A DNA stretch of 43,138 nt from Chrysochromulina tobinii (Eukaryota): assembly GCA_001275005.1 (NCBI GenBank), contig JWZX01003176.1, forward strand, positions 1 to 43,138. The letters are read 5' to 3'. The notes under the pieces are model-generated. The model searched no databases and was not told where the DNA came from. It worked only from the letters and a program-made list of their open reading frames with translations. Of this stretch, positions 465 to 31,494 are shown in pieces; positions within the stretch are counted from its first letter, which is position 1, and each line of letters starts with the position of its first letter. Position numbers and translations under genes: made by a program.

Positions 465-2851
465 ATGTTCTTCGACGCGCTGCGATCGCGCACTCCATCG
501 TGCACCTCATCCCTGTGTCGCGTTCGTCTTTGCCGCTCGCTGCAAACGCACGGCCTCGGTGGCCTCGTGCGCCACGCGTCAACGGCAGCCATCGAGACCC
601 AGCAGCACGTGATCACGCGGGCGCTTACACGGCCGCTTGCTGGCGCATTGGGCGGCGGCGGCGTGCTTGCACTCTCACTGCTCTGGCAGTCGGAGCGGCG
701 CGCAAGCGCGTGCGCGCCCGTAGGCTTGCAGCTGGCGTCGGCTCATTCCGCAAGCACCTCCCGAGCGCAGAGCATCGGGGCGCTGATTGAGACGAAGGGC
801 CGCCTGTGGGTGGCGCTGAGTGTCTTCTGGCGGTGCCTCGAGCTGCTCTGGCAGCTCGCACCCGTCGTGTTCACCCTGCCGCTGCTCCACTCACCGCTGC
901 GGCTGCGGTGGCTTGCGCTGCTGCGCCGCACGCTCGAGCGCTGCGGGCCAGTGGGCATCAAGTGGGGGCAGTGGGCGAGCACTCGGTATGACCTCTTCGA
1001 GGACGACCTGTGCGACGAGCTGCACAAGCTCACCAACTCCGCGCCCGCCCACTCGATCGCGCACACGCGCGCCGTCGTGGCGGCCGACTTTGGGTGCGAG
1101 CTGAGTGACCTCTTCGCTACCTTCGAGGATGAGCCGATGGCGAGCGGCTCGATCGGGCAGGTGCGAGCTCAGTGCGAGCTCAGTGCGAGCTCAGTGCGAG
1201 CTCAGTGCGAGCTCAGTGCGAGCTCAGTGCGAGCTCAGTGCGAGCTCAGTGCGAGCTCAGTGTGACCTCTGATCGACCTCTGAGCGTCTCTGATCGACCT
1301 CTGATCGACCTCTGATCGACCTCTGATCGACCTCTGAGCGTCTCTGGTGGCGTCTCTGGTGGCGTCTCTGGTGGCGTCTCTGGCGGCGTCTCTGGTGGCG
1401 TCTCTGGTGACGCGTCTGGTGACGCCTCTGGTGTCTGGTCGCCTGTGAGCGCCGCTGACTCTCTCGATGCATGCGCGGTTCGTTGTCGCAGGTGCACCTG
1501 GCGACGCTGAAGCACGCTCACGGGCGCTTCGAGCGGGGTCGCAAGGTGGCAGTCAAGGTGCAGCACCCAAACCTGGCCGAGCGCCTCACGCTCGATATGG
1601 CCATCCTCATGTCCGCGGCCGACCTCGTCGGCAGCGTCGCCGGCGTGCGCATCCACGAGACCGTCGCCCAGTTCGCCTCCAACTTTTACATGCAGCTTGA
1701 CTTCCGTGACGAAGCCGCCAACCTGCGCCGTTTCCAAGCCAACTTTGGATCGGCCTTTTGGGGAGCCATCGTCTCCTTTCCGCAACCCATTGAGGGCGGA
1801 CCCACGCCCCTCGTGTCGGAGCATGTGGTGGTCGAGACTTTCGAGGTGAGCGCCCATCGCCTCGGATGGCCTCTGATGACCTCTGATGACCTCCGAGTGC
1901 CTCTGATGGCCTCTGATGACCTCTGATGACCTCTGATGACCTCCGATGGCCTCAGATGACCTCTGATCGCCTCTGATCGCCTCCCATGGCCTCTGATGGC
2001 TCGACCGCTTACAGGCGGGCGACTCGGTCGCCGAGTACCTCAAGCGCGGCGTACCTCAGGTCGAGGTGAAGGGATGGAAGCGCGTGGGTAGCAAGTGGGT
2101 GCCAGCCGACGGCTCTGACCCAACTAGCCTGCTGCCGCCCGGCGCCGAAGCAGACGACGCAAAGGCGGCGGAGTTTGTCCTGCTGCGCAAAAAGGTGGGC
2201 GTGTGCGGCGTGCAGTCGTACATCAAGATGGTGATGCTCGATAACTTCGTCCATGCGGACCTGCACCCGGGCAACGTGCTTGTGCGCATGGAGGAGGTGG
2301 GCCTGCTCGCCCGGTTCCAGCGCTTCATCCTGCTAGGGGGCACTTGGGAGGAGATGCAGCGCTCGACCATGCCGCACATCGTCTTCCTCGACGCGGGCCT
2401 AGCCGCCACCTTCGACGATCGCATCTACTCCAACGTTCAAGGCTTCTTCACCGCGATCGTCGAGCATAAAGGACCCGAGTTCGGCCGCGCGATCCTCGGT
2501 CTGAACCCGACGCAGCCCCATGTCTTGTCCGAGGAGGCGTTTATACAGGAGGTAACGCAGAAGATGGGCGAGATGCGGGCTCAGCTATTACGGGGCGAGG
2601 GGCGCGCCGGTGACAATATCCGCTCGTTCATGGCCTCGGTTCGTAACCACAATGTGAGCCTCGACCCCACGGTGATGGTGGCGCTCATGTCTATGATGGT
2701 TCTCGAAGGGTGGCAGTGGCGCCTCGACCCTTCAGTCGGCATCCTCGACGCCATCGAGATGCAGCTCATTCGGAAGGCCTCGCTCGCCGGCTGGCTCCTG
2801 TCCGCCGCCGAAGTGTACGCGAGCTTCAAAGCCAAGTATCTGCCCGCGTGA
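465..2851 (+). CDS. ABC1/UbiB (ADCK) family atypical protein kinase; exons 465-1160, 1492-1845, 2015-2851
   Basis: Motifs GPVGIKWGQWASTRYDLF, PMASGSIGQVH, VAVKVQHP, LDFRDEA, HADLHPGN and LDAGL. Two phase-0 GT-AG introns (1161-1491, 1846-2014) join three ORF-track frames into one protein. The Arg/Ser-rich N-terminus suggests organelle targeting. Confidence 0.92.
1161..1491 (+). other. intron 1 of the ABC1 gene, composed of three tandem-repeat blocks
   Basis: CAG|GT...CAG|GT; (GTGCGAGCTCA)x9, then (CTCTGATCGAC)-type 11-mers, then (GTCTCTGGTGGC)-type 12-mers. Confidence 0.9.
1846..2014 (+). other. intron 2 of the ABC1 gene with a (GACCTCTGAT)-type decamer array
   Basis: GAG|GTGAGC...TTACAG|GCG; removal restores the frame VETFE-AGDSV. 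Confidence 0.88.
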
Positions 2852-3513
2852 TCAGAAGGCGGGGCGACGAGGATCGTTCTACTCTTGTCAGGCTAGGACG
2901 ACTGCCCGAGCTTAGTGCAAGTGGTTCCGTGATCAGGTGGAGCACCACTCCACACTTAGCAGAACGGTGCACACTTTGTGCAGCCCGTGCGAAAGAGAAA
3001 TGGGGCTGATTCGATGCACTAGTGTCGCGCTCGTAAGTCGATCTGGCCGCTGTAAAGTAACGAAGGGCGCAACACGAGCCGTTGCGTGCGTGCGTGTGTT
3101 AACTGGTGCACGACCGGACCTTCTTGACCCAAAGGGAGTGTGGCCTTCTCTTTATTCCGGTTTCGCAAGTTTCTAGTTTGGGTCCCGCTCAGCAGAACGA
3201 CAACGCTCTTCACCGTCTTGGTCTTGCTCAGGAGGACGTGGGCGGGGGAGCAGCGGGTCATGATGCAAATGCAGACACAAGGTTCACAAGCATTATGCTA
3301 TTAGCATTACACAAGCATCACAACTCAATCGTTCATACCGAGTATGGGTATGGACCCACGTGCTCACTACAGCGGGTGACTCATCCCCCATGCAGCTTCC
3401 AGGGTCTGAACCCGGCTATCGGATCTCCCCGCTCTGAGGTGCACTGGGCGCTGTGATGGGCAGCCCACCCTGTCTTCGGCTAACGACTCTCATTCCCTCA
3501 CGATCAATGAGGA

Positions 3514-6500
3514 TCATACCCTCACGATCAAGACATCCTCCTCGTCGGCCAAGCCCTCCGGCAGCGCCCAAGGCTTCAGAAGACTCGACGGGGACGGCGA
3601 CGGCAGTGCTTGCGGCGGCGGGACCTCCGCCGGCGCCGGCACCGGCGGCACAACCTCAACTGTCTTCGCACGCTCCAGCTGAGCCTCCGAAGCAGTCTTC
3701 GCAGCAGCAGCTTTCTCCTTCTCGAGCGCCGTATCGAGCACCATGGCCTCCGCTCGGAGCGAAGGCTTCTTCTTGAGGGCCGGCTTGGCAACGGAGGCGC
3801 CAAGCACCGATGCGACCGTCTCGGCGTGCTGTTCAAGAACGCCCTCAGTCTCGTCAAGAACGCCCTCAGACAGCCGGAGTGGTGGGTACGGGAGCAGGGT
3901 CCCCTCGCCACTGAGGTCTCGCGACTGGCGCGAGCGGATGCGTGGCGTGAGGCGCCTGTGCATGCCGCCCGTGAGCTTGTGATTGAGCGCCTCGAGGTAC
4001 TTGGAGGCCACGAGCAGAGCTCCGGACGAGATCTTGAGCACACCTCCAACAGTGGTGCTGCTCAGCCCATACACAAAGCCCTTGACGCCGCCCCGGCTCG
4101 CGCCTCGGATGGAGGCGCCCAGGTCGAAGACGCCGGTGCGCACGCCCAGCTCGAGCACTTCGAGAGAACCCATGGCTGACATGAAGTCACGCGACTTGTG
4201 CTGCTCCGCCTGAAGGTGTGAATAGACGAAGTTGGGGTCGCGGGTCAGGCGCGCGAGCGCGGTGCTCGAGGTGCCCAAGTTCGTCGAGAGGAACGAGAGG
4301 ATCCAATCGGCGATGGTGATGGAGAAGCCGTGCAGCCCCGCAGCCAGAGCCGCGGGCAGCTTGAGGAGTGACGAACCCTCACGCTCCCACCGGGCGAGGA
4401 ACCGGCTGTACCCAAACTCGACGGCTTGGAAGAGCTTGCCCACGTTGCCCAACTTGTTGGCGAGGAGATTCGTCAGGGCTTTGAGCGCCGCGAGCCAATA
4501 ATGGGCGACGGCGAGCTGCACGAGATCGGCGGGCGGCGAGAAGAACTCGAGCGTCTCGAAGGGCGGCAGCTCAATCTGCCAATTGTCGAGCGAAGCGAGC
4601 GAGGCGACGGCGCTGAGATGATCGAGCTCATCGAGGTCCTCGTCGTCGAGCGCGGCCGCCTCGCCGCCGTCGAGCTGCGAGCGTCGGTCGAGTGCATCTG
4701 CCTTGATCTGCACGGTGATGCTCAGCCGCACCTGGTCGATCTTCACGCGCTTGAGATAGAGCTCGTTCAGGCCCGATTTGGAACGAGACTTGGAGCGCTG
4801 GGCGACCACCAGCTCCGTCGACTCGGCGCTCTCGGGCGGCTCGTCTGCCGGGGCCTCGGCCTGGGGAGTCTCGTCCTCGTGCATCCGCCGCTCGTGTTGA
4901 TTGCCATCCGCCGTGTCCGCGATCTCCGCTAGACCTCGCTTCATACGGACGAGTCGGGCGACCAAGGTCTGCTCGAGGCAGATGGTGAGCGGCTGCAGCG
5001 AGATGCGCACCTCCTCGACGCACTTGATGCTGCTGCTGTAATCCGTCTGATCGGTGAGCGAAAAGAAGAGCATCGGCGGGAGAGGCCCATCCGACGCACT
5101 CGAGGGCGCATGGACCCTGCTCACACTGCGCCTGTTCGCACTGCGTCTGTTCACACTGCGTCGGATGGGCGGCGGTTGCGGCGGCTGGCGCCCAGCGCCC
5201 ACGACGGCGCGCCACGGGTGCTCGAGGAGCGAAGCGGCAGCAGCCTCGAGCGAGGCCGCGTGCGCAGGGAGGCATCGGCGATCGCGCGTGCGCTTCGATT
5301 CCTCGGCGAGCAGCACTGGGAAATCCGCCGATTCGATGGGCGTGTCGATCTGCAGCAGGTCCACGGCGAGCTGCACGGACTGCCGAGGCGCTCCGCTCGC
5401 GGGTGTGACGCTCATCAGGTGAGCATCGATGTGCTCGAGGGAGAAGCGCAGAATCTCCGACGGCTCGAGATCGACGAGGGTGAGCCCAACACGGCGCAGA
5501 TGGACGTGCAGCATCTCGACGGTGATCAACTTGAGCGGCGTCGTCTCGGGCGGTGGCGGCTCGGGCGGCGTCGTCTCGAGCGGCGGCGGCTCCGCGGCGC
5601 CCCCGGCAGGTGGGGCGCCGTGTTGGGCGTGGGGGTCGGCGGCGACGCCCAGCCGCTGGGGTGTGCCCACCACGGCGCGCTGGGGCGTGCCCGCCACGGC
5701 GCGCTGGGGCGTGCCCACGTGGAGCTCGCGTACTGGGCCGACCGCATGCAACTGTAAGCGCACGCTGTGCATCTCGGCCTCAATCTCGGCCTCAATCTCG
5801 GCGCCGGCCGCCCTCGAGAGCGCCGTCGCCGCACGCAGCAGGAGCTCGCGTGCCTCGCTCGAGGCGGGCGGGCAACTGTACAGAGGCAGCTGCCCTTGCT
5901 CGTCGCGGGCGCGGGGGTCGGCCTTGGCGCGCAGGAGCAGCTTGAGGACCGGCGCACAGCCCGCGGACGCTGCAAAGTGGAGCGCGGTCATGCCCACCAC
6001 GGCGCGCTGGATGCCCGAAAGAGGTGCGGCGCCGTGTTTGGAGTGGGCGAGGCTGGCGCCGTGCTGGGCGCTCGCCTCCGACGGGCGGGAAGGCAAGCCC
6101 GGCTCGGCGCGGGCTTCGAGCAGCATTCGAACGAGGTCGGCATGCCCTCGGATGCACGCCTCGTGCAGCGCACTCGTGCCGTTCGGACCAAACGAGTCTG
6201 GGTGCGTGTGGGAGTGAAGCAGGGCCTTGACGGTCTGTATCTGCCCCGCGGCCGCAGCTGTCACGATCAGCGCCGAGTGGATCATCTGCGTGCCCACCGC
6301 CTGCTGCCGCGTCTCGGCCATCGTGAGCTCTGTGCGCGCACGCGAGCCCTCGATGGAGAGCTGCGACGCACGCTTGCCATCGCCCCCCCTTGCCTCGAGA
6401 GGGTCGGCGCCGGCGCCGAGCAACAGCCGAATGCACGTGTGCCCGTGTGGAGCGGCCACATGGAGAGGCGTTTGCTTCCACCCGTCGTGGGTCTTCAGAT

Positions 6501-9500
6501 TCACGTCGGCCCGCGCCTCGATGAGCTTCTCAATCACGCCAGCGCTCTGCAGCGCACACGCGACGTGGAGCGAGCTCTGCCCCGTCTGGTGGCTCACAGA
6601 GTCGGGCGAGGCGCCCCGCGAGAGGAGGAGGTTGAAGGTGCTCATGTCGCCCGACGCGAGGGCGTCGACCAGCTCGGGCATCGCGATACGCGTCGGCTCG
6701 AGCTGCGAGTGCCAACGGGCGGCGCGTCGGCGGCGAGTGACCGACTGCACGAGCACGGCCGCCTGTGCCGCATCCATATTAGGGTTGGCCGTGCTCACGC
6801 CGCGCGCCCTTCGCGCCCACGAAAGCACCTGCAGCTGCACGTCCTCAAGATGGGCACGGGTGCTGACACGGGTGCTGACACGCTCCGCCATCTTGGCGCG
6901 CACGAGCTGCAGCGTCCTCTCCGTCGCGGCCCGCTCCTTGGAGCCGCTCAGTAGCGCGTTGAGCTGGGCACACGTGCGGGCAGGATCGAGCAGGCCGGTG
7001 CAGCGGAGCCGCTCGCCGCTGGTCGTGACGATGAGCAATCCGCCGTCGGCCACGTCCCTTGCATCGAGGCTCGAGCTGCGTGTGCCACCTTCGCCGCCGC
7101 CCCCTCTCGCTCCATCGGCCCCGAGGAGGACGGCCGCCACCTGCTCGAGCGGCAACGGGAAGGCGTCGAGGGCCATCCACGTGACCGTCGGCCCTGGAAA
7201 AGCGTCAGCGTTCGACACCCTTTCCTCTTCCGACTGCGACGGCGTGAGCGGCGGCGGGGACGATGAGTCCTCGCCCTCGTCCTCACCCACGGCCTCCCTT
7301 TTCGTCTTCCTCCTCGTCCTCTTCTTCTTCTCATCAGCAAGCACCAGGTCTCCGCTGATGAAGACGAGCCATGATTGTGACGCGCACAGCCACCCCCGAG
7401 AGCGCCTGATACGGCGCGGAGGGCGCGCCGCCAGAAGCGCCTTGTTGGCCGCGCTCGGTGAGAGCGGCGTCTTTTTCTTCGGTGTTCCACCCGCCGTCGT
7501 GGGCGACTGAGCCGCCGTCGTGGGCGACTGAGCCGCCGTCGTGGGCGACTGAGCCGCCGTCGTGGGCGACTGAGCCGCCGTCGTGGGCGCGGCATGGTGC
7601 AGGGTGCATCCGACCGAGAAGAGATGCGATTCTGACCGTGGGAGCCACGCGGTTGGCGAAGCCCGCGCCTTGCCGCCTGCAAGCGTCGCCAACTTGAAGT
7701 CGGGCGCGTGGGAGCCGATGCCCGTGACGGCGCTGGCCGTGCTCGCCATTTTGCCTACCGCGTCTCCCAAAGTTCCCACAGAGGACGCTGCCCTCTCGGT
7801 GAAGGAGCCTCCGCGGTCCATCACGCCGCTGATGGCGCTCCCCACCGACACCCCACCGAGGCTGATGGCGTTGTCGAAGACCTGGAGCGTCTTGAGGACC
7901 GCATCGCCCACACTCGCCTCCTTGACGGCCTTGAGCTCTCTGGTCGCTGTGGCGCACTGCACGCCGTGAGGGTCGCGCAGCATGAGCTCGAGGGTCGCCG
8001 GCTCACCCCGCTCCTTGAACGCGAGGGGCGAGTCGAGCGCGTAGTCCATCGTCTCTCCCGCGCCGAGCAGATCCCAGCGCTGGGTGCCCACCTGACGAAA
8101 CCCGAAGAGCATGAATGGCAATCAGAGGTCATCAGAGGCCATCAGAGGTCATCAGAGGTCATCAGTGGTCATGACCTGACGAAACCCGAGGAGCATGTTC
8201 AGCATGCAATCAGAGGCAATCAGAGGTCATCAGAGCTCATCACCTGACGAAACGCGAGGAGCATGTTCAGCATGCAATCAGAGGCAATCAGAGGTCATCA
8301 GAGGTCATCACCTGACGAAACGCGAGGAGCATGTTCGATTCGTTGGCGATGCGGAAGGGCAGGTGGCGGCTCAGGACATCCACATGCTCGGCCCGCGCCC
8401 CCGAAAAGTGGCCTTTGGGCTCGTCGAGGTAGAGCACCGTCTGCGCGCGCTCTTGGGTCACGTGGAGCACCAAGTAGCGCTCGATCGCATACGAAAGCTC
8501 CTCGTCGAGATTGGGACGAAACTTGAGCGTGAACGTGCCCATCTGGAAGGGCGAGAAGGCACAGCACCACTCGTGCTCGCGAGTAGCAAAGCGTACTTGC
8601 ATGAGCCGGCGGGCGTCGTAGTTCCGGAAGCGCAGCGCGCCCGTTTGGGCGCCCGGAGGGACCACGAGCTCAGCGCCAAAGGCATGCCGGCGGCCGAGCT
8701 CATTGCCTCGGTGCTTGGCCGGGGGCGCCTCCCGCCACCAAAGGGTCTCTGACGTGGCATTGTGCACCACGAAACGGTCGTGGACGTAGGTTACATTGCT
8801 CATGCCCACGGGCACGCTCGAGTCGCGCTCGACCGTGACGCTCACCTCGACCATCTCCCCATGGCCGACGGGCACCGAGAGGGGGGTCGACGAGCCGGTC
8901 ACGTTGATCGGGAAGGCGCCCGACTGCGAGCCGATCACGTCCGACTTGGCGTACGCGAGGCGTGCCTTGTCGCCGACCTTTTCGGTGGCGCCTTCGAAGG
9001 CCAGCGTGAAGTAATGGGGCAGCGCCGAGTGAGCGTCCGCGGTGGTGACCGGCTTCTTCGCGCTCGAGCCGTAGAGGGCGAGGGGCACCGACGACTTGTT
9101 GTACAGCCAGTGCGGCGCGAACAGGCGCAGCTCGCACTGGGCGCCGTGCGACTTGATCTCCACGAGTAGCGTGACGGAGAGGGCCGTGTTCCGGCCACCC
9201 ACGTGCAGCTGGAGCTGCGAGATCTGCTTGTGGCCCACCCGAGCCTTCTCGGGCAGGCAGACCTCGATCTCGCCGCGCAGAGGCTCGCCGTCCGCGCGCG
9301 GGAGCTGTGCGTACAGCTCGAGCGCCGTCCACGCGTGGAAGCTGTGGAAGCGGCGCGAGGCGCCGGCGCGGATGGTGAACTGCGCCGAGGGCAGAAGCGC
9401 GTCGATCGGGAGCGGAGGGTCGAGAAAGTCCTTGTTCAGATGGCCCATGAGGCTCTCGTCCACCTTGTGCCCGCTTCGGCCGCTCGGCCGCCTGGCGCGC

Positions 9501-12500: not shown

Positions 12501-15500
12501 ATGGCCTCGGGAAAGACGGCGCGACTCGCCAGATGCAGCGCCGTCTTGAGCGGTCCCTCCTCTGCGGAGCATGCGGGCAGCGCGTCGACGCTCGCACGTG
12601 CTGCAATGAGCAGCTCGGCACAGAGCAGAAACGGACGTCGCGAGCGGCTCTTCGAGACAATCGCTGCGCGGCACGCGTGCTGCAGCGCGGTGCCGTCCGG
12701 GCTGAACGAGTTCGGGTCTGCGCGCTCGCGCAGCAGCGACCGGACGTCTTGATCTTGACCCCTCGCCGCGGCGAGCACCAGGTCTGGGTCCGGGTAGTGC
12801 GTGGCCAGTGGCCATCGAGCGGCGCCGTCCTGGGTGTCGTCCTCATCCGAGCTCGAGGAGCGCAAGACACGAGCGGAGACGTCGTCGTCTGCCACGTATC
12901 CACTCCGATCGGAGCCGCCGCTCGGCTGCTGCACCGGGAGCGGAGGACGTGGATCGAGGGCATGCTTGCATGCAACCGCGAGCCTCTTGTGCGCCTCGGT
13001 CTTCCGATGCGCCTTGGCGAGCCAAGCGGCCGTCCGCCCATGGCAGTCCGCGGCGATCGGGTCGGCGCGGTGCTCGATCAGCAGCTCGATGATGCCGACG
13101 GAGCCCGAGACGGCGGCAAAGTGTAACGGCAGCATCCCATCGCTCGTAGGCTTGTTGACCTGCGCCTTGACGCGCAGCAGCATCTTGACGACTGCCTCGT
13201 GCTTGTACGCGGCCGCCACATGCAGCGCGCTATGATCGCCGTGCACGCCGCCCTTTTCCGAGTCTGGGTGCGCGCAGCGCCTGAGGAGCAGTTCCACCGT
13301 GGCGAGCTCGCCCTTTCGCGCCGCCGTGACGAGCATCGCGTTGAAAGTTGTGGTCGCGTGCTTGCTCGCGTGCTTCGCTCCGAGAGCACCCATGCGCTTT
13401 GCGCCGATCCACATGGCATACCCGCCCAACGGTTCGGCCACAAGCGACGTGAGCAAGTCCAGTCCCCTCGGGTCTCGAGTCCCTCGATGCGGCCAATGTG
13501 AGACCCTTCGACGCGAAGCCGGAGCTCGGTATAATTGAGCGCGGCCGCCGGCTCGTACACATTCTTGGTCTTCAATTGTGAGCCGACCACCTCGGTAGCG
13601 TGCACGATCTGGCGCATCGACTTGTATGAGTCCTCCTTGTCCCGTTGCCGGCGGCTGCGGCGCATCTCGTCGAGACGACTCTCGACCTGCTTGAGACGGC
13701 CCTCGTACTCGAGGCGCACCGAGCGCTTCTGCTCCTCGCTCTGGCCCGGCTGCTGCTCGGCGCTCTCCATCTCGAGCTTCGTCGAGTGGAGCTCTTGCAG
13801 CAGCGCGAGGATCCGGCGCGACATCTCGCTCGCCGTCGGCGCTTGGTCCGCCGTCTCCTGCACGCCGTGACCGAGCTTTGGAGTGGGAGGCGAGGAGGAG
13901 CCGCGGAGCCTTGGAGGCCGTGCGTCATCGGTTTGGGGTCCATCCTCAGGCTCGATCATGCGGAACTTGTCCTTGAGAGACGCCACGCGCGGCGCTGCCT
14001 CGAGCAGATCCTTGAGCAGAGCGTACGACACGTTGATCTCAATCGGGGAGCTCGCGCGAAGCATGAGCGCCGTCGTGGTAGTCGGCCCCGTCGCATGGTT
14101 GGCAAACGTGAGCCGGACAGCCGACGGCTCGAGGATCGGTTCCCATCGGGACAGGGCCATGTTGAAGTTGGACACTTGCATGCGCAGATCGAGCGCCACA
14201 TTGTCGAGCACGTTGTCGAGCACGTTGGCCGACTTGACGAGCACATCGGCCTGCGCGCGGAACCCATCGACAGCGACCTCGAGCAGCGGCAGGAAGGAGC
14301 CCCCTCCCCACAAGGCGGCGTCCGAGTCGTCGATGAGATGGACCCAGAGCCCACCCCAGCTGCTCACACGCACCTTGAGGTCCATGCTCGTCAGTTGCGA
14401 GCCCGGGTCCGCAAAGTCGGCCGCGGTGGCTGCCGCGGCCTTCTTGGCGGCGGCGAGTCGTGATGGCGACAGTCGCGATGGTGGCTGCGACGGCAGTGCG
14501 CCGTCGGCCCTTTGGGGCGGCAGCGCCGAGCGCATCGAGGCGACAGCTCTCTTGAGCGCATCCGAAGCGTCCCCATCGTCGACCATCCGCTCTTGGTTCG
14601 GCATTCGCGATGGCAGCTTGGGCGCCGGGTTGAGCGCCGCCTCCGCCACGGCCTCCGCAGAGCGCATTTGGCCCCAGCTTTGGCTCCAGCGCATGGCACG
14701 TTCGTGCTGCACCACAAGCTGCTGCTCCTTGGCGATCTCCTCCCCGATGATGGCGAGCAGCGCCAGATGGGAGAAGGCCAGGTTCAAGTGGAGCGCGCCA
14801 AGGCGCACGTCCACGCGCAGCACGATCGGGAGCACGGAGCCCAAGGGCGGGAGCGTCCTCTCGAGCACAAGATCCAATTGGAAGCGCTCGAGGGTGAACT
14901 TGTCGTTCGGAATCCGGCCCTGCTCTCTCGTGCCGCCGAGCGCCTCCCCGTCGTTGTCAACCACCCTCCATCGCTCGTTGAGACGGTCGTCGATGAGCAC
15001 TTCGACATGCTTGAGGCGCAGCCGCAGCCTGTCGCACCATCCGAGGTTCGTCAACTTCGGGCGTGCGCCAGGGCCCAAGTCGAGCAGTTTCGTCAGATCG
15101 GTGCATGCTTGCAGCTGCCCGAGGCGTACCACCAGACCTCCGCGCGGGTCGCTTGGGCGTGGCAACACGAGCACAGGCAACTCGAAACAGAGGCACAGCG
15201 CCACCAGAGGGAGGGTGCGCAGGGCATCCGTCGGGTCGCCTGCGGCAGCGGCGGGCTTCGTACCGGTACCGCCGCCGCCGCCACCGCCGGCAGCGGCTGG
15301 CTCGGGCGCCTCGGCTGCTGCCTCCGCGGGCGGCGGCGCATGCGCTGCCACCGCGGTGCCGAGTCGTGCAATCGCGGCGCCAATCGACGCGAGCTCGCGC
15401 GCATGCAGATTCACCTGCAGGGGCTTGAGAGCGCATGCAAGACTCAGGGCATACTCAGGCATGGTGCACGCCGCGCTGCCCTGGGCACCGCCTGCTGCTA

Positions 15501-15907: not shown

Positions 15908-15941
<34 letters not shown>

Positions 15942-20991: not shown

Positions 20992-21562
20992 ATCGGCCGG
21001 CCGTGTTCGGGACTATCACGACGCCCTCGTGGAGGAACATGTTTCCATTTTTAATCAAGTTCATTTTTAGACAGCCGAAACACTCTCACACACATAAGTC
21101 AAGCTTGCGCTACAAACGTCGCGCCGGCCCGCCGAAAGGAATCATGTGAAGATCCGTCCCGGCGGGCCCTGGCACGCGAGAGCAGCATGTATGTACAAGC
21201 TCAGCAATGAAGCTCAGCTTCAAGCTCATTCCGTTATCCGTTTCCTCAAGAAGGCTTTCCCCTGGGCCTTTTCCGATTGCCCTTCCTCTGGGCTATCAGT
21301 ATCCCCCTATGACTGGTTCCATGAATGGACACCGTCCCATGTGATCGACACACCTGTGTCAAGTTGAGTTCACAGGAGCGACGCGTAACTTTGGGCGTCA
21401 CGCGGCAATCAGGACTTCAGGAGCATTACCTTGTATGGAATCAGGAGGCCAGGCGCTCGGATGTTCAGCCGAAGACTGGCGCCCCACACCGACACGCGTC
21501 CTTGCTTGCGTCCGCTCCAATTCACGCAATCTCGACAGCCGAGATCACTTCCGTCTCGTGAG

Positions 21563-22138: not shown

Positions 22139-22647
22139 GCGGCACGCTGGGCAGATGAAAATACTGTTGAGATCAGCTTCTGGACCGACTTTGAGATCGG
22201 CGGCGGGCCAGGGGAGCAATGCCTAAGCAATGCCGGGGACGGCGAATGTGTGAGAGTCCCAGTTCCAGAGACACCAGATGCACGGCAGGCGCGCGCGCGC
22301 AGCCGCCATGGCAACCGTTCGGCAGCCGCACGCCCTACCAAATTGTGTGCGACTACAGTGCAGCTCGTCCACACTGTGTGTCCAGTGACGCCCGGGAGCG
22401 TTCTGAACTGGGCTTATCCGACTCGTCGGCTTACACTAAACGTCGAACGGAAAACCCGGTAACGGGCCCAAAAATATCCAAACCCACCAGCCGAGGCTGC
22501 CGACAACGCAGCCCCCTCGAAAAAATAGCCCCGCGGGGCTTCAGCCACGTAAATGTGACTCTCGAGCCCGATACAGCGCTCGACCTGAGCGTGCGATCGT
22601 TGAAGAGACAGAGAGGGCCTTTCTCTGATCTGCTGAAGAGCGGACAC

Positions 22648-23312
22648 ATGGGCAAAGGCGCGACTCAGCATGTGGTGGAAACCCGGAAGCCCAAGGCCAT
22701 CGACGTGCCGCCGGAGCTCGTGTCATGGATGAACCCGATTGGCTCCTTCAGCGACGAGCTTGTTCGTGCGTGTGCTGCCCGCTCAGAATTGCCTTGAGGG
22801 CACCGGCGGCCCGGTGCTTGCACTCACTCTCACGTGCCCCCCGCGTCACGCCCGTCGCAGCTCAAGCGCGGCGGTACTACAAATCGCATCCGAGTACCAC
22901 TGGGCAACTGACCGCTGGCCAGTTTGGGGGGGCCATCGGCTATCCACGGCCGTCAGTCACCTCGAACGAGGATCCGCTGATCAAGGAGAAGATGCGCACC
23001 TTCCCCGACAACCATCCATCATTCGGCTCAGTGCCAAACCTCAAAGCTATGGGCGCCCCCGCTCTCGTCTTCACGCAGGGCGACTCGACGCAGTGGGAGT
23101 CGACGACGCGCGCCACGATAGACCTCCACAAGCCGACGCTCAAAAACCGCAAGGAGGGCAAGGCGAGTGTGGAGGCGCTCTTTGGCGCGGGCGACCTTTA
23201 CACGGTGCCGATCGACTCGTACGTGGCGCCCGTTGGCGCTCCGCCCACCATCTCACGGGACCAGCGTGTGTTCAAGCACATGGGCACTCTGTCGCGCTTG
23301 GGCAAGTGGTGA
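22648..23312 (+). CDS. hypothetical protein (189 aa); exons 22648-22765 and 22861-23312
   Basis: A phase-1 intron C|GTGCGT...CCCGTCGCAG| (95 nt) joins MGKGATQ...DELV to QARRYYK...LGKW; coding-like codon usage. Confidence 0.65.
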
Positions 23313-23578
23313 ACGCCTGAACGGGCGCGCTCGCTGCTGACCCTGGACACGGCTGCGCTCGCAGTCACAGCGCACACGCCGCGCGAGGGCCGCGGCGGTG
23401 CTTGGCACACCCAGCACGACGAGAGAGATGAGAGAGAATACGAACGCACACACAGGTATACCATTAGAGAATTGACCTCTTGCCACGCGGTTAGCCACGC
23501 TGTACACGCTATTTGTGAGAGAGCGAGAGTTGAGAACTGAACTCACGTCGAAAGCGCTGTTGTGGGCGGCCGACGAGA

Positions 23579-24319
23579 ATGTCAATGGCGCCGATGAGGT
23601 TGTGGACGCCGATCAAGCCGCTGACCTTGCTGGCGATGCTGTGCGGCGTGGCCGGTATGGCTGTGCGACCAAAGCTCAGCCAGTGCCGGCCAGGTCCCAA
23701 CTTGCAGCCTCCGGAACGCATCGACGCCGACGCAGCACCTGGCCCTCGCGATGTGGTCGTCAAGCTTTACGACATCTCGACGCCCGAATTGTGCAGGGCA
23801 ATGTCGCTGCTTGCGTCGAAGCCCGCGTATTGGTTTCCAAAGCTGAGCGTGGGCGTTGGTCGGCGGACGTGGTCCTACGACGGCGAGCCCGAGCAGACGT
23901 ATGACGCGATCATCGAGAATGCAGCAGGCGAGCCACCGCTGCGCACGTGGAATTGTGGAGCGACGAGGCTGACGGACACGGAGATCGACGCGCTCATTGG
24001 TGAGATGGGCGCGACCGACTACACGCCAGCCGAGTACGACTTCTTCCTTCGCAACTGCAACCACTTTTGCTACGACCTCGCCGAGCGGCTCGCGGGCCCA
24101 TGGAAGACGAAGGCTGCGCAGTTCATGGACGAGCGCGTGCTCCATGAGTCGGAGGCGATCCTGAACGCGATGCCGGGGTTACAGCAGACAATGACGCGCG
24201 CGGTCACCTTCCAGGTCCAGAAGATTATCATCAAGTCGTGGCGCAAGGAGTGGAAGCGCGCGCTCGCCGAGTATGAGGAGCAGCAGAACGTACCGCTGGG
24301 CGAGCGGATCTCGGGTTAG
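23579..24319 (+). CDS. PPPDE/DeSI (peptidase C97)-like protein with an N-terminal hydrophobic leader
   Basis: VVVKLYDIS at the domain start and YDFFLRNCNHFCYDLAERL match the DeSI NCNHF catalytic-Cys motif; start may be ATG 23579, 23585 or 23594. Confidence 0.8.
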   Translation: MSMAPMRLWTPIKPLTLLAMLCGVAGMAVRPKLSQCRPGPNLQPPERIDADAAPGPRDVVVKLYDISTPELCRAMSLLASKPAYWFPKLSVGVGRRTWSYDGEPEQTYDAIIENAAGEPPLRTWNCGATRLTDTEIDALIGEMGATDYTPAEYDFFLRNCNHFCYDLAERLAGPWKTKAAQFMDERVLHESEAILNAMPGLQQTMTRAVTFQVQKIIIKSWRKEWKRALAEYEEQQNVPLGERISG

Positions 24320-24871
24320 GGGTTTCTCGGCGGCGGCGGCGGTGAATTGTACACTGTACGCCCGTGTAACTGTGCATTGGGCTTTGACGTGCGTTCTACA
24401 CGCCGCACCGGCCCCACCGCGACTCGCCCTTCGGGCTTCGCTATCAATTCTGGGGCTTCCGGGTGGCTGCTCTTGCTGAACGACACAAATGACGACAGCT
24501 TTTCGTTCCCGGCTTGTGTATCCAACCTCGTCATGTATCATTATGGAAAGTTTAGCAACGATTAGCGTTTAACATAGATACGGTAACCGTTACGAATCCA
24601 CTGTACCGCGTACCTCAAATCTGTGCGGCCAGCAGGGCCAGGGGTCAATCCTTTATTGAGCGGGACTGCGTGGGGAAGCCGCTTACATTCGTGCTTAGAT
24701 AGGGATTGCGAGGGTATCTAAGGACTAAGCTTTCAGAACTAGTCACCGGGTCGCCGGCTACAGAAAGCACTCCGGAACGCCGCTCCGATACGGCGCTCAC
24801 ACAAGATAGGCGCCGTCGGGTCGAGGCGACGTCGCAAGCGCATATCGTCCAACCCCTTCGGCGCACTCACG

Positions 24872-25413
24872 ATGGCTCCGCTGAGCTTCTGGGGATGCGT
24901 CGTCAAGCCTGGCAAGACGCCGACAACACTCAAACGCGCGCAGGAGTTTGCCTCCGTCATTATCAAACAGGTGCGCTTGCCACCACCACCGCCGCTGCGG
25001 CCGCGCCCGTGTGACGGAGCACAAAGAGTCGCGCGCGCGCACCTCAATCGAAAAGTGTTATCGTGGCGGCGCCCCTAACTCTCCTTTCTGCGTGCATCGC
25101 GATTTTGCTGCAGGCCGCACTCGCTCCCGAGGGCAAGCCCGAGGGCACGAGCGTCCTCTCCGTGTCGGTGGGCGCCACGTCGGAGGACAAGTTCGTGCTG
25201 TGCCACCTGACGCCGGGCAGCTGCGACCAGTGGGCGCTGGACGTGGGCTTCGCGCCCGAGGACGGTGAGGTTACCTTCCACCTCACAGGCAAGACCGCCG
25301 TCCACCTCACTGGCTTCCACGAGATGGACGACGACGACGAGGACGACGACGACGAGGACATGGACGAGGAGGCAATGAAGCAGCTGGAGGAGGAGGAGGG
25401 CGAAGAGGAGGAT

Positions 25414-25471
<58 letters not shown>

Positions 25472-26454
25472 CAGCCCCCGCGCCGGCCAAGGGCAAGGGC
25501 GCGCCAGTCAAGGCGGCGGCGCCGGCACCGGCCAAGGCGGCGCCGGCCCCGGCACCAGCCACGGGCAAGGCAGCGCCGGCCCCGGCACCAGCCAAGGGCA
25601 AGGCAGCGCCGGCACCAGCACCAGCCACGGGCAAGGCAGCGCCGGCGCCAGTGCCGGTCAAGGCGGCGGCGGTCAAGGCGGCGGCGGGCAAGGCGGCGAC
25701 GGCGCTTCCGAAGGGTGGTGTGGAGGACGATGAGGACGATGAGGACGATGATCTTGATGACGGCGAGGACGAGGAGGATGACCCTGACGATGAAGACGAT
25801 GAGGACGATGAGGACGATGAGGACGATGAGGACGATGATGACTTTGACGACGCGGAGGTCGTGGACCAGAAGCGTTCGTTGCTCTTCGAGGGAGTCGACA
25901 TGAAGGACCTTCAGGGCGACGACGACGACGACGACGACGAGGACGACGACGAGGACGAGGACGGCGAGGAGGACGAGGAGGATGAGGACGACGAGGGCGA
26001 GGAGGAGGACGACGAGCTCGACGACGACGAGTTCGATGACGAGGACGAGGAGGAGGATGAGCCCGCACCTCCGCCCAAGGGCGGCAAGCGCCCTGCGCCG
26101 GCCGCCGCTGCCGCCCCGCCGCCGGCCAAGAAGGCCAAGGGCATGCCCACCCCGCCGCCGGCCAAGGCGCCGCCGGCCGCACCTGCGAAGGGCGCAACGC
26201 CCAAGGCGGCAACGCCCGCGGCGAAAGCGGCGACGCCCGCAGCTGGCAAGGCGGCGACGCCCGCGGCTTCGCCCGCCGCGACGCCCGCAGCGGGCGCGCA
26301 GGCGTGGAGTGCTAAGGAAGAAAAGGCCCTCGCGGACTCGCTCGCCAAGCTCAAGGAGGGCACTCCGAATCGATGGGAGCGTGTGGCGCAGGACGTGGGC
26401 GGCGGCAAGACCCCGAGTGCGTGCAAGAAGCATGCCAAGGAGATGAAGAAGTGA
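24872..26454 (+). CDS. nucleoplasmin-like (NPL) domain protein with acidic tracts, Lys/Ala/Pro-rich linkers and a C-terminal SANT/Myb domain; exons 24872-24970 and 25114-26454
   Basis: SFWGCVVKPG...KQAAL...FVLCHL...VTFHLTGKTAVHLTGF resembles the NPL fold of HD2 and FKBP39-type proteins; long D/E runs; WSAKEEKAL...NRWERVAQDVGGGKTPSAC is SANT-like; phase-0 intron CAG|GTGCGC...CTGCAG|. Confidence 0.85.
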
Positions 26455-26473
26455 GTGTGCCGCAGTGAGTGCG

Positions 26474-26549
26474 CGGCGGTGGCGGCCACGGCGGCGGCCA
26501 CGGCGGCGGCCACGGCGGCGGTGGCGGTGGCGGTGGCGGTGACGGTGAC
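26474..26549 (+). repeat. GC-rich microsatellite-like tract (GGCGGCGGCCAC and GGTGGC units) downstream of the NPL gene
   Basis: About three 12-mer copies followed by (GGTGGC)n degenerating to GGTGAC. Confidence 0.8.
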
Positions 26550-27083
26550 AGCTGAACCGCCCTCGCGCGGCGCGGGTGGCAGCAGCAGTGCGTGCAAGGG
26601 AGCGGCTGCTCACTTTAGATGGCGGGATGCTGCATGAGTAGCTCCCCAAACATGCACTCAAGTGGTCCAGAAATGAATGAGTTGGAGCGGGCTGCGCTCT
26701 GACTGAGCCGGGACGAACAAGTCGTTTCGTATGATGTGCGCGTTGAGCTGAGTCTTCTAACACTATAATGGATACGGTAAGCCAACCGCGCCAACTCACG
26801 CTGATCGCGCTGTATGTACCTGCTCGCCGCCCGGACGCGGGGGACCGGGCCCGGAGGCATGCCCGGAGGACGGCGGTCGGCGCGCCACGGCCGGGAACCT
26901 GTGTCCTGTCAAAACTGTGCCCCGCCCTTGGTGCCCGCAGCCGACACTGCGCGGCACGGAGCACTTGAGATCGATTAGCTAGTGGTCCTATTACCTATCG
27001 AATGAGAAAAGACCGGCGCGCCGCACCGTTGGGCGGAGACGTCACAGGCCGGGCGGGAGTGGTGGGCGCAAAAGCAAAAGCCG

Positions 27084-28655
27084 TCAGGCTGGTTCAGATA
27101 CGCCTGTGGCAGCCTGCGTCGCCTTCGCGGACCACAGTGGGCGGTACACAATGGGCGGTGGCGGAAGCTTCTGAGCGCTGGCACTGGCGAGAGATTCGTC
27201 GGCCGAGGGAGGGTGATCGCTCGGGTCGGTGGGCCGCGGACCCCCAAGCACCCAACTGAACCACTCGGCGGTGTAGCGCGCAGGGCCGTGGCCCGGACTC
27301 TGTGGAAGCTCGTGGGCAGCGGGTAGCGAAGAGTCGGCGGCTGATGAGGATGAGGATGACGCGTTCGGTGCTGCAGAGGAGGGGGGCGCCTTTGCAGCTG
27401 GTGCTGCCTTCTTCGGCTTCCCTCCTCCAGAGCCCGATTTGGATTTGGTTGCGGCGCCCAATCGCTGCCCCTCTGCCGCGAGCATGTAGGCGTCATAGGA
27501 AGCGGAGGCGCCGCCCACGTTGGTACGCGCCTCTTTGGCCACTCCCAAGGCTTTGAGGATCGCATCGACCTGCGCCTGCAAGCTGCCCGCGTTCGGGAGT
27601 CCGATGATTCCGTTGGCCTCCCAGACTACCGCGTTCGGCGAGAGCGAGACCTCCAACCCTAAGCGCTCCTTGATGAGATCCACTTGGTGGCGCTTGACGA
27701 ACGCATGCTTGGGCGCTGCCGTGGGCATCTTCGGGGGTGGCGGTGGCAAGGGTGGAGGCTCCGAGGGTGTGGCCAAAAGCGGCTTGGCTTTGGGTAGTGG
27801 AGCGGAGCGCGGCAGCGGTGGCGACGACGACCCAGGCATCGACCCAGGCAACGGGTGCGAGCGCGGTAGCGGAGGCGAGGGCGGCGTGCTAGCGGCCACC
27901 GCCGCCTCTTCCGGTGCACCCGCCTGCTCCGTCGGCAGCTGCTGCGTTCGCCCCAAATGAATCAACGTCTCGCCCTCAGCGTGCCGTGCTTCGCGCTTCG
28001 CACGCCGCGCTGCGAACGCCACTTTCTCCGCTTGCGCCGCTGCGGCGATCGCGGCCGCCTCTGCGTCGGCGACCTCGCGTGCGGCGGTTGCGTTGGCCTT
28101 GGCAATACCCGCGGCGGACGTTGCGCCGTGCGGTCCAAATCTGTGGCGGGCCGCCTCAAGCTCGTCGACTTGCTTGGCCTTGCGCCGCTTGGCATCCTCA
28201 AGCCGCCGCTGGGCCAGCTTCAATCGGTCCTCAGCCTCCCGCAGCCGCGAGATGTCCTTGCGCGCCTGCGCGGCTGCACGCTCCTTCTCAAAAATCGCTT
28301 CCTCACGCATCCGCTGCAGCTCCGCCTCGGCGGCGGCTCGCCGGCGCGGCGTGAGCGCTCGCTGGTAGAGCGGGTTGCTCGCCGCTTGCGGGTTGAGTTT
28401 CTGCCTTCGGAGCTCGTCCACGTAGGCCGCGCGAAGTTTATCGTCTGCAAGCACCCGGTACGCCTCGTGCAGGATCACGAAGGCGTCCGCCGCGCGAGGG
28501 TCATCGCTCTTGTCAGGGTGCACGTGCAGGCTGGCCTTGCGGAAGGCAGCGGTGACTGCTGCCTTGCCCCCCTCCTTTAAGGCTGCCGGTTTCAGCTTGA
28601 GCACCTTCCAGTGGTCAGTGGCCTTGAGGACGGAGGTCACGGTGACCGTCTTCAT
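27084..28655 (-). CDS. class C J-domain (DnaJ) protein with a coiled coil and a Pro-rich region
   Basis: DHWKVLKL...AFRKASLHVHPDKSDDPRAADAFVILHEAYRVL contains the HPD motif; ATG at 28655. Confidence 0.85.
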   Translation of the reverse strand: MKTVTVTSVLKATDHWKVLKLKPAALKEGGKAAVTAAFRKASLHVHPDKSDDPRAADAFVILHEAYRVLADDKLRAAYVDELRRQKLNPQAASNPLYQRALTPRRRAAAEAELQRMREEAIFEKERAAAQARKDISRLREAEDRLKLAQRRLEDAKRRKAKQVDELEAARHRFGPHGATSAAGIAKANATAAREVADAEAAAIAAAAQAEKVAFAARRAKREARHAEGETLIHLGRTQQLPTEQAGAPEEAAVAASTPPSPPLPRSHPLPGSMPGSSSPPLPRSAPLPKAKPLLATPSEPPPLPPPPPKMPTAAPKHAFVKRHQVDLIKERLGLEVSLSPNAVVWEANGIIGLPNAGSLQAQVDAILKALGVAKEARTNVGGASASYDAYMLAAEGQRLGAATKSKSGSGGGKPKKAAPAAKAPPSSAAPNASSSSSSAADSSLPAAHELPQSPGHGPARYTAEWFSWVLGGPRPTDPSDHPPSADESLASASAQKLPPPPIVYRPLWSAKATQAATGVSEPA

Positions 28656-28886
28656 GGCGCTCCGGCCCCGCAGGCCGGCCGGAGCCAAACCCCGCACGAA
28701 AGCCTGTGAATGTGTACACCCGGACTATTGCGCGATTATCCTTTCGGATAGCTGGATGTTCACGTGCTTCTTTACCAACTTAGGTATGTATGTGAATGTG
28801 AACGTTAGCACGACAAACGCGTCGACCGTGCACGACACCGGCGACACGGCACTTGCAGCTCAATAGGCCGTCCCCGAAGTGAAAGA

Positions 28887-31494
28887 ATGGCTTTCGGCGT
28901 GATATGCTCGTGCTGCGGCGAGAAGGGCGAGGTGGAGGACGCTGCCGCGGCGGCCTCCTTCATGTGCCAACCTTGCGAACAAGATCCCAACACGGCGAAA
29001 CCCGACATGTCGGTGTACACCATACCCGCCGAAACGGGAGTCGTCATGCTCGAGGCAGCGAAGGCGTTTGCCACTCTGACGCCAAAGGAGCAGGCGTACG
29101 CACACGCGCTCGCCAAGGCAGATTGGGACGGCGCCAAGATCTGCCTACTTCAGTGCAGCCCTGAATCGCCCTACATATTTGCGCTCCTCATGCTCGTCTT
29201 TTCCGCGCAGCCGGTGGAAGCGCTCGTCTCAATGTCGTCGGCCAAGGGGCTGAGCGATGAAGAGGTTTGCCAAGCGCTCATGTACTGCGCGGCCTTTTTC
29301 GGCAACATGGGCAACTACAAGTCCTTCGGCGACACCAAGTTTGTCCCGTCGCTCGCCGCCGACAAAATGCTCGCCTTTCTGTCCGCCGGCGCGGCGGATG
29401 GTGCCAAGGTAGATCGGCTTTGGCGACGCTGCGTCGTGCGGATGTACTCGCTGCCGCCGCGGCAGCGGCAGCTCGGGCTCGGCCGCGCGAACGGCATCTC
29501 GACATACTTTTCTGCTAACTGCGAGGCCGCTGACGCCGATCTCGCTGGCCGCTTCCTTACTTCGATCGGCCTCTCACCATACAATACGAGGCTCTTCAAG
29601 GGCGACGATGGGTACACCGTGCTTCTCGCGTCAGCGGAGGAGCAGGCGGCCGTTGCGGGCATCCTCGCGGAGGCCCGCAGTGCCGGTCTAGATGCGAGCA
29701 AGGCTGTGCCCGCCTGGCTGGCCAACCTCGACCTCCCGGCATCCATGGCCGCGGCGTTTGGGGCGGTGGCCGTTGACATCAGTGATGGCGAAGCGGCGGG
29801 CGCGGGGGCGGGCGAGGCGGAGGCACGGGCGCTGGACGGCCTGTGCCGCGCTCACTCCTTCGAGGGGCACACGATCCGCGTGCGCCGCGGCGACTACGCT
29901 CCAATTATGGCTCGTGTGGTGGGCTGGCTCGAGGCAGCGATCCCCCACGCGGCAGACCAGACGCAGGCGGCGATGCTCGAAGCGTACGCGACGTCGTTCC
30001 GTGAAGGCTCGATCGAGGCCCACAAGCGTGGATCCCGCCACTGGATCCGTGACAAGGGCCCCGCGGTCGAGAGCTACATCGGCTTCATCGAGTCCTATCG
30101 CGACCCGAGCGGCTCTCGCGGGGAGTGGGAGGGCTTCGTCGCCTGCGTCAATCGCGAGGTGAGCCGCACGAGCTCACCTGATGGCGTCTGGTGGCGTCTG
30201 GTGGCGTCTGATGGCCTCTGATGGCGTCTGATGGCGTCTGGTGGCGTCTGGTGGCGTCTGATGGACTCTGATGGCGTCTGATGGCGTCTGATGGCGTCTG
30301 ATGGCGTCTGGTTGCCTCTGATCGCAGGTGAGCCGCAAGTTCCAAACTCTCGTCGACGGCGCTGAGGAGATGCTCAAGCTCATGCCCTGGCCCCGCGCCT
30401 TCGAGAAGGACCAGTTCCTGCGGCCGGACTTCACGTCGCTCGAGGTGCTCAGCTTCGGCTCGTCGGGCGTCCCAGCCGGCATCAATATCCCCAATTATGA
30501 TGACATTCGGCAGTCCGAGGGCTTCAAGAACGTGAGCCTTGGCAACGTGCTCCAGGCCTCGTACGGCGCGGGCGAGAAGCCCGTCTCCTTCGTGGCCGAG
30601 GCCGACCAAGCGCTCTTCAAAGCTCTCAAGGGCGAAGCCTTCGAGGTGCAGGTGGGAATCCATGAGCTTCTGGGGCACGGATCTGGCAAGCTCTACCACG
30701 CCAACACGGCCGACGCCGCCACGCTCCACGGCACGCCGCACCCGCTTACGGGCGAGCCTATCTCGGGCCCCTTTTATGCGGCGGGCGCTACGTGGGACTC
30801 GACCTTCGGACGGCTCGCGTCGGCCTATGAGGAATGCCGCGCCGAGTGCGCGGGCATCTACCTGTGCTTGGAGCCAAGCGTGCTGACCATCTTTGGGCAT
30901 GCGGATGCGCCCGCGAGCGAGGTGGCGCAGGTGCACGACATCACGTACATCAACTGGCTCCTCATGGTACGTGCAGGTCTCACCGGTCTCGAGTTCTACA
31001 CGCCGGAGACCCGCGAGTGGCGCCAGGCGCACATGCGTGCCCGTTTCGCCATCCTACGAGTGCTGCTGGAGGCGGGCGAGGGGCTCGTCACACTCACGCG
31101 CACGACGGGTGCCGACGGGAGGCCAGACGTAACCGCGACCATCGAGCGCGCGCTCATCAAGACGGTTGGCAAGGAAGCCATCCGCAAGTTCCTTCTCGCG
31201 CTCCAGGTGCATAAATCGCTCGGTGACCTTGCCGGCGGCACCGCCTTGTTCGAAAAGTACTCGCTCGTGAGCGACGAGCTCATGGCCATCCGCACGATCG
31301 TGATGGCTCGCAAGGAGCCACGCAAGCTTCTCGTACAGCCCGTGCTCACTGCGGCGCTGGATGGCTCGATTGGCATCAAGCAGTTCGAGCCGACGCCCGC
31401 GGGCATGATCGAGTCGTTCGTCGCGCGCTTCCCCGCAGAGGATGACGCGCTGCTCGCCCTCGCCGACAAGGACCAGCCGCACGTGCTCGACTGA
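28887..31494 (+). CDS. DPP3: dipeptidyl peptidase III (peptidase M49), 812 aa; exons 28887-30158 and 30328-31494
   Basis: Diagnostic HELLGH and EECRAE zinc motifs, plus NMGNYKSFGDTKFVP, GFIESYRDP, PAGINIPNYDDIRQSEGFKNVSLGNV and QAHMRAR; phase-0 intron 30159-30327. Confidence 0.96.
30159..30327 (+). other. DPP3 intron composed of a (GGCGTCTG[A/G]T)-type decamer array
   Basis: GAG|GTGAGC...ATCGCAG|GTGAGC; about 14 decamers; removal restores VNRE-VSRKFQ. Confidence 0.92.

Follow-up and report, generated by a model that had tools for sequence, protein, structure and literature searches.

The 43,138-nt contig JWZX01003176.1 of the alga Chrysochromulina tobinii (assembly GCA_001275005.1), analysed here over its whole length and called the window below, carries three genes, for an ABC1/AarF kinase, a VPS13-like protein and the peptidase DPP3, whose four introns hold tandem arrays of short units sharing the core TCTG(A/G)T. 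The window is haptophyte DNA, because the joined ABC1 exons give exactly the public C. tobinii protein KOO23598.1 (628 aa). The origin of new spliceosomal introns is an open question; most classified families of introners are DNA transposons, and approximately 72% of families are unclassified (PMC12130899). We find that the array introns belong to a large, young intron family in C. tobinii that is real and has an unusual insertion signature, and we regard it as a new variant of intron-generating element. The features concerned are the following.

465 to 2851, plus strand: ABC1/AarF kinase gene, exons 465-1160, 1492-1845 and 2015-2851, with Pfam PF03109 in all three exons.
1161 to 1491, plus strand: ABC1 intron 1, 331 nt, phase 0, skipped by RNA contigs in two of four runs.
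1161 to 1262, plus strand: 11-mer tandem array inside ABC1 intron 1, 9.3 copies with 100% match, outside the TCTG(A/G)T family.
1264 to 1439, plus strand: TCTG(A/G)T array in ABC1 intron 1, units of 11 and 12 bp, 13 cores.
1846 to 2014, plus strand: ABC1 intron 2, 169 nt, phase 0, with a 10-bp array at 1859-2000, skipped by RNA contigs in three of four runs.
8092 to 8311, minus strand: intron of the VPS13-like gene, 220 nt, phase 0, skipped by RNA contigs in three of four runs.
28887 to 31494, plus strand: DPP3 (peptidase M49) gene, exons 28887-30158 and 30328-31494.
30159 to 30327, plus strand: DPP3 intron, 169 nt, phase 0, with a 10-bp array at 30178-30322.

The window contains 66 TCTG(A/G)T cores, compared with 30.0 ± 5.2 in shuffled sequence (none of 100 shuffles gets there), and the four introns account for 46 of these cores (13, 9, 10 and 14), all in the transcribed orientation. 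A first-pass annotation of the window, made from the letters alone, had described four sense-oriented arrays in introns, and this is confirmed: three of the introns are spliced in RNA contigs and the fourth, in DPP3, is supported by frame and Pfam continuity. At ABC1 intron 1 the contigs skip the 331 nt with 8 letters compatible with either side, and at the VPS13-like intron they skip the 220 nt with 13 letters, all exact, compatible with both sides. The DPP3 joint is not among the RNA-contig joints listed for the window; here the exons join in frame, the Pfam M49 match covers positions 85-188 and then 189-547 across the join, and homologues run straight through the intron site. In one DNA run the bin holding the DPP3 array has a summed contig depth of ~9,980 compared with ~45 nearby, which is not a copy number, yet marks a highly repeated sequence.

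Host sequence is duplicated at the ends of two of the four introns. The DPP3 intron has a perfect 12-bp direct repeat across its splice sites (30157-30168 and 30326-30337), and the VPS13-like intron consists of three 68-bp tandem units, each an array followed by a copy of the upstream exon end, with an acceptor that derives from this duplicated exon end (20 of 22 letters identical on the upstream side). At ABC1 the repeat is 8 bp for intron 1 (1157-1164 and 1488-1495), which barely exceeds the AG|GT consensus, and for intron 2 an exact repeat of 3 bp only; both are no more than splice consensus, and the direct repeats at the ends of ordinary window introns (n = 3) measure 0-3 bp. The start of ABC1 intron 1 had been taken for a related array and is instead the amplified donor site of the intron (1161-1262, 102 nt), whose separate 11-mer is the source of most of the 21 internal AGs, which lie in this intron. 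A control intron gives the ordinary case.

22766 to 22860, plus strand: ordinary intron, 95 nt, without array or flanking repeat, skipped by RNA contigs in all three RNA runs.

Related loci were collected by array match in a metagenome scan, with one match in prokaryotic genomes, giving at least 127 loci (726 kb) from mixed-culture and other metagenome records, in which the species of single loci is unchecked. Together with the window they contain at least 330 array clusters, 278 of them with 150-nt flanks, and at least 217 distinct clusters are left after duplicate removal, from 91 sources (90 loci and the window). The period is 10 in 1234 of 1468 units, and two variants make up 48%. The three commonest units bring a stop codon within 30 nt in every sense frame and in no antisense frame, and AG occurs 1.3 times per 100 nt in arrays compared with 6.0 overall. 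The lack of AG that had been noted hence applies to the unit only and fails for ABC1 intron 1 as a whole, and the more general proposal of a shared, AG-poor, sense-oriented intron body is supported.

For orientation we used a coding model trained on the window exons and long open reading frames (ORFs), which matched the strand for 49 of 53 held-out 120-nt pieces of window genes, with the genes as read by the analyst serving as the reference. It scores 184 of the 201 clusters with long enough flanks as sense (16 dropped), and most of the 17 others have an array as flank and show sense splice signals. Pfam matches point the same way: when 80 of 247 candidate ORFs adjoining arrays were searched, 16 of the 40 longest sense ORFs had a match, compared with 3 of the 40 longest antisense ORFs, one of the three being a neighbouring gene and two (loci L063 and L077) lying at true antisense arrays. 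The sense orientation reported for the window therefore extends to the related loci with the exception of these two arrays inside ORFs. Non-coding context on both sides was found for 1 of 201 clusters, compared with 6.7% of random sites, and for 0 of 337 two-unit matches; non-coding, array-free tiles make up 895 of 4711 (19%). Equal frequency in intergenic DNA and on both strands, which had been named as the outcome that would speak for simple satellite expansion, was not seen in these loci. Blind targeting would mostly strike neutral DNA; arrays are nearly absent there and on the antisense strand, which speaks for a step linked to transcripts.

The junctions of the clusters go beyond what had been noticed in the window. 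They show a host-exon duplication from which one splice site or both are derived, acceptor modules with a fixed 3' end and a sister family free of arrays. Exact repeats of at least 10 bp between the flanks, counted without anchoring, occur in 62 of 217 clusters compared with 1.1% of shuffled pairs, and host-exon duplications anchored at the splice sites (bracketing GT/GC and AG, score of at least 10) in 60 of 217 compared with 0.5%, so that nearly all long repeats are splice-anchored. The anchored duplications lie to the right of the donor in 32 cases, to the left in 14 and across it ('both') in 14. Boundaries were counted without an automatic spliced-gene model, which mis-placed two of the four known window introns. 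A fixed 3' module closes 89 of the 217 clusters, 75 of them in a form ending CATCAG, and the A of the last CTGAT stands at -17 in 97% of these 75. The branch-point role that had been suggested for CTGAT throughout the array thus finds support only in the last unit, the one next to the fixed 3' module.

In 36 of the 89 module-ended clusters (class 1) the start of the downstream exon is repeated just before the array (score of at least 8; 2.2% in shuffled pairs). These duplications, which supply the donor in this commonest form, measure 8-37 bp, 19 of the 36 are perfect and the overall mismatch is 3.7%; the intron consists of duplication, array and module only, with a length of 70-130 nt in 20 of 36. 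Because only 11 of the 36 donors are preceded by a host AG, the acceptor AG comes with the insert, and because 8-37 bp is shorter than any intron seen (at least 65 nt), duplication and filler probably arrived together. With duplication and insert removed, the frame is open and scores as coding in 29 of 36 cases, and with them retained it is broken in all 36; it is by frame only (29/36) that splicing is judged at the loci outside the window. At the array 5' junction, 9 of the 11 possible distances of 0-10 from the first core are occupied (28 junctions), with a mean microhomology of 1.7 compared with 0.45 (n = 28). When one insert is compared with another, the longest identical 3' stretch is 2-72 nt out of 48-512 nt and the 5' ends vary. 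Terminal inverted repeats had been reported as missing, which fits a 5' end that starts at any array phase. ABC1 intron 2 and the DPP3 intron are both exactly 169 nt long, and we considered and rejected a fixed intron length, given that class 1 lengths run from 70 to 532 nt with no peak at 169.

A sister family without arrays follows the same plan with another 3' module, in 19 copies under a strict pattern, 11 of them with duplications of 14-50 bp. It directly follows arrays at several loci (9/10 matches). The array itself is therefore not required for this footprint. One predicted member lies in the window, with its donor from the duplication and its acceptor from the fixed 3' module; its splicing is not among the RNA-contig joints listed.

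40630 to 40707, plus strand: predicted array-free intron, 78 nt, with a 24-bp duplication (23 identical) whose second copy is at 40708-40731.

Whole units of duplication, array and acceptor are also found repeated in tandem, with six copies in locus L084 (9255-9700) and two or more in L049, L058 and L120.

The array intron family was likely gained recently. Among the matches listed, which cover 15 of the 47 members of the DPP3 protein cluster, all 13 alleles at least 99% identical in exon 1 enter the intron, with four array variants. The sister sequences P0001 and P0133 (405/424 identical, 95.5%) read through the site, one of them on 16 contigs of up to 22 kb, and outgroups at 59-65% identity are uninterrupted on contigs of up to 28 and 43 kb. 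This absence assumes that the ORFs were called without splicing, which is consistent with the same sources yielding the truncated form. With an empty site in a 95.5%-identical sister and in outgroups, the DPP3 intron appears to be a recent gain. Distant homologues that span the site of ABC1 intron 2 read on without a break, and it is from them alone that the absence of this intron is known; no intron-less sister of ABC1 was found. Within the collected loci no empty sites were found, and the 3 of 36 introns with a second copy were all filled. Ancient, conserved positions had been named as evidence that would count against recent spread, and they are contradicted by DPP3, absent in sister and outgroups; at ABC1 intron 1 the site is shared and may be older.

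The reading that we consider best is an introner-like family with retro-type signatures, and to this extent the introner-like spread suggested in the first pass is supported. Related intron sequences occur in unrelated genes, with a 3' module shared by 89 of 217 clusters; the copies are not similar from end to end. Retro-type insertion is marked by a 3' end that is fixed, a 5' end that varies and shows microhomology, and a duplication that varies; class 1 (36/89), and class 1 only, shows all three. Non-LTR retrotransposons and SINEs (short interspersed elements), which insert by target-primed reverse transcription, have the same end pattern, with a fixed 3' end, variable 5' truncation with microhomology and a variable duplication. 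The C. tobinii inserts differ from them in ending at a splice acceptor AG, with no poly(A) or simple-repeat 3' tail, in being nearly confined to sense coding introns and in that no partner enzyme was found. The fixed 3' end coincides exactly with the end of an excised intron. We give an even chance to the fuller proposition that the arrays are the body of a genome-wide and likely recent family of spliceosomal introns, many of them with a host-exon duplication at their flanks, that spread when the 3' parts of existing introns were copied from RNA into new exon sites.

From the observed splicing, family membership, duplications, fixed 3' and variable 5' ends and the absence of the DPP3 intron in relatives, we infer a route of four steps, in which template, enzyme and branch-point use are part of the proposal only. 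An RNA ending at an intron AG, either a debranched intron after its excision or a short master RNA with the same end, would be reverse-transcribed from that end. Copying would halt at a variable point in the array and rejoin the target through 1-4 bases of microhomology, and rejoining 8-37 bases past the entry point would leave the target duplicated. Where the duplication starts with GT or GC, its first copy would serve as donor and the copied end as branch point and acceptor, restoring the mRNA exactly; if copying instead began inside the array, the insertion could survive when the duplication itself carries AG|G. Slippage would later alter the number of units and at times repeat the whole unit. 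As for the transcript-linked step, copying could be primed at genes under transcription, or templates could be switched between mRNA and intron RNA, with recombination afterwards. More tentatively, and in our view possible rather than probable, excised introns may be their own mobile templates, whose 3' ends are reverse-transcribed into other transcripts or genes with no dedicated transposon. The long target duplication would then supply the donor, and a stop-rich, AG-poor 10-mer would be enriched since it gives a working intron from any truncation point.

Several observations weigh against RNA-templated spread. No reverse transcriptase or autonomous element was detected by a motif scan of 960 ORFs (726 kb), and no reverse transcriptase by Pfam in 80 of the 247 array-adjacent ORFs. 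Reverse transcription should be blocked by the branch of a lariat, and a debranched or separate RNA would therefore be needed. The loci were picked for containing an array and are not an unbiased genome sample. A long detectable duplication is missing in 157 of 217 clusters and a fixed 3' module in 128 of 217; the former is as expected for older or rearranged copies, and equally for arrays entering older introns. The commonest 3' module is absent from all four window introns, two of which have exact repeats of just 3 and 8 bp. The exon start after the module is GT in 65 of 89 cases, so DNA microhomology could also stop copying exactly at AG. The antisense arrays of L063 (1207-1253) and L077 (8379-8448) are read in frame within ORFs, where they encode a short peptide in repeated form, that of L077 between two copies of a duplicated flank. 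At ABC1, a 97%-identical lineage (P0220) appears to hold both introns, and at the intron 1 site one cluster at 62% identity (homologues P0164 and P0186) has a 34-residue (102-nt) in-frame, array-free insertion, which is missing in a relative 80% identical to this cluster and in others on contigs of 8-113 kb. This site may reflect a parallel gain at CAG|GTG or an older intron.

The rival that survives best, which we nevertheless consider rather unlikely, is DNA-templated repair, in which a staggered break is filled in, a piece of an array intron is copied by microhomology-mediated end joining and selection keeps the events that splice exactly, the array being simply the commonest filler. It accounts for the junctions equally well, namely the variable duplication length, the 5' junction microhomology and the three geometries, with the GT at most exon starts ending copying at AG, and it explains the two antisense in-frame cases (L063 and L077) better than RNA copying does. 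Direct repeats at intron ends have also been linked to break repair (PMC11782384). However, blind repair predicts many intergenic and antisense arrays, whereas we see 1/201 and 0/337 in non-coding context and 2/201 clearly antisense. Improbable in our assessment is a minisatellite that invaded old introns, with the exon-edge copies added later by local tandem duplication. The ABC1 intron 1 site, common with a distant relative, and the unique 3' end of this intron are in its favour, as are the whole-unit tandem repeats (the VPS13-like 68-mer, the ABC1 11-mer and L084) and the alleles that vary in array make-up. It is at odds with the missing DPP3 intron in sister and outgroups, with the uninterrupted ABC1 intron 2 site in distant homologues and with class 1 introns, in which duplication, array and module leave no older intron.

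Telomerase-like addition, in which a dedicated RNA would serve as template for adding the 10-base unit at breaks, seems to us highly improbable: it would fit the period of 10 in 1234/1468 units, the 48% share of two variants and the variable copy number, but the many unit variants speak against it and the fixed, non-repetitive 3' modules and the array-free family need a longer template. The related idea of de novo templated synthesis of a single unit, raised in the first pass, is likewise hard to reconcile with 3' ends that are fixed and composite and with the mixture of units. A non-autonomous DNA transposon (a MITE- or HUH-type introner) is barely credible and already largely refuted by the variable ends, even though DNA transposons account for most introners of known class and some introners bring their own 3' site and take the 5' site from the duplication (PMC12130899; bioRxiv 10.1101/2020.10.14.339549), given that there is no fixed 5' end or terminal inverted repeat, that 3 of 28 junctions start at a core complementary to the 3' end, that duplications measure 8-37 bp (14-50 bp in the array-free family) rather than a fixed 3-8, and that no consistent folding signal is seen.

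Introners with the same splice-site logic as class 1, which bring the 3' site themselves and obtain the 5' site from the target duplication, are described for Symbiodinium and for Polarella, there in classes 4, 5, 6, 8 and 10 (PMC9860276; bioRxiv 10.1101/2020.10.14.339549), and geometries as flexible as here are found in Polarella classes 9 and 12-14. Those families have fixed duplications of 3-8 bp, with inverted repeats in Symbiodinium, whereas the C. tobinii family has duplications of 8-37 bp or more, a variable 5' end and a minisatellite body. Closer to C. tobinii, an introner of a Chrysochromulina sp. from a marine metagenome-assembled genome (MAG) has a 4-bp duplication and carries the 5' site (PMC9860276). 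Emiliania huxleyi fam24, of unknown class, has '10bp terminal direct repeats', co-opts the 5' site and carries the 3' site, and Pavlovales fam1 has a weak non-LTR call (PMC12130899); both are from the same phylum and share the splice-site geometry of the C. tobinii arrays. The surveyed haptophyte introners have 5-7 copies each and no mechanism, and our comparison with them is by description only.

Intron gain by AG|GT tandem duplication resembles our 14 'both' cases, DPP3 and VPS13, in which AG|G is duplicated, and whole units are re-duplicated here too; the difference is a foreign filler shared between copies that mostly supplies the acceptor. Both splice sites come from the duplicated host segment in DPP3, VPS13 and the 28 'left' or 'both' cases and not in the 32 'right' cases, and with the array shared between copies none of these introns consists solely of duplicated host sequence. 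For another haptophyte, Emiliania huxleyi, Read et al. reportedly described in 2013 stranded tandem repeats of 10-11 bp in introns, which agree with the arrays in period, intronic location and strand bias. The compositional observation of arrays is hence probably already known for the phylum; the Emiliania repeats reportedly have a different unit and were presented as a matter of sequence composition, with no mention of duplications, fixed 3' ends or intron gain. Full-text literature searches gave, among the matches listed, no description of the array family or its insertion footprint, which supplements or subscription papers may hold, and the available portions of PMC4580454, PMC12480563, PMC4028052, PMC10288648 and PMC11282704 do not describe the family.

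Some side observations concern the unit, the neighbouring sequence and the collected contigs. CTGATGA occurs in the array unit, and its reverse complement closes the module; the unit also resembles overlapping box D and box C motifs of small nucleolar RNAs. Folding of five sequences gave no consistent signal (z -2.0 to +1.5), leaving a stable RNA structure unsupported, and the window has no Rfam match. The VPS13-like gene has Pfam VPS13_N and VPS13_VAB upstream of the intron and also bears ankyrin repeats. On the minus strand its frame changes at 13081-13924, between the long overlapping ORFs 21012-13081 and 13924-8291, for which an intron, a frameshift or an assembly error are candidates. At 37956 one base is missing in a DNA run and near 33915-33916 two bases are added in RNA and DNA contigs, which are likely assembly errors or alleles affecting reading frames.

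Among the collected contigs, L045 is a 1.4-kb contig of a bacterial MAG with array and 3' module, likely algal contamination. L001-L044 are 44 phage or giant-virus stretches with 10-periodic TCTGAT and other, mostly AT-rich spacers, some near-identical between contigs; being AT-rich or otherwise unlike, they were rejected as family members, and no 3' module was found in the viral contigs. The last 60 bases of the phage-like contig L172 (4495-4554) are an array-free 3' module plus exon start, probably a chimeric end.

The C. tobinii genome is 59 Mb with about one intron per gene (PMC4580454), and the 2025 survey lists 0 introner families for it (PMC12130899). Similarity-based surveys have probably missed the family through its variable copy length and low complexity. 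One array intron per 11 kb of window would give thousands per genome, a rough extrapolation from four cases. Array introns also explain a source of wrong haptophyte gene models. A cultured alga with a small genome here offers an intron family that is both large and young (19 of 36 duplications still perfect); the chemistry of insertion is recorded in its junctions, and whether introns are gained from RNA or DNA templates becomes directly testable. If excised introns do act as their own templates, this would be natural, large-scale RNA-mediated intron transposition, and the stranded 10-11-mers of haptophyte introns in general may be explained.

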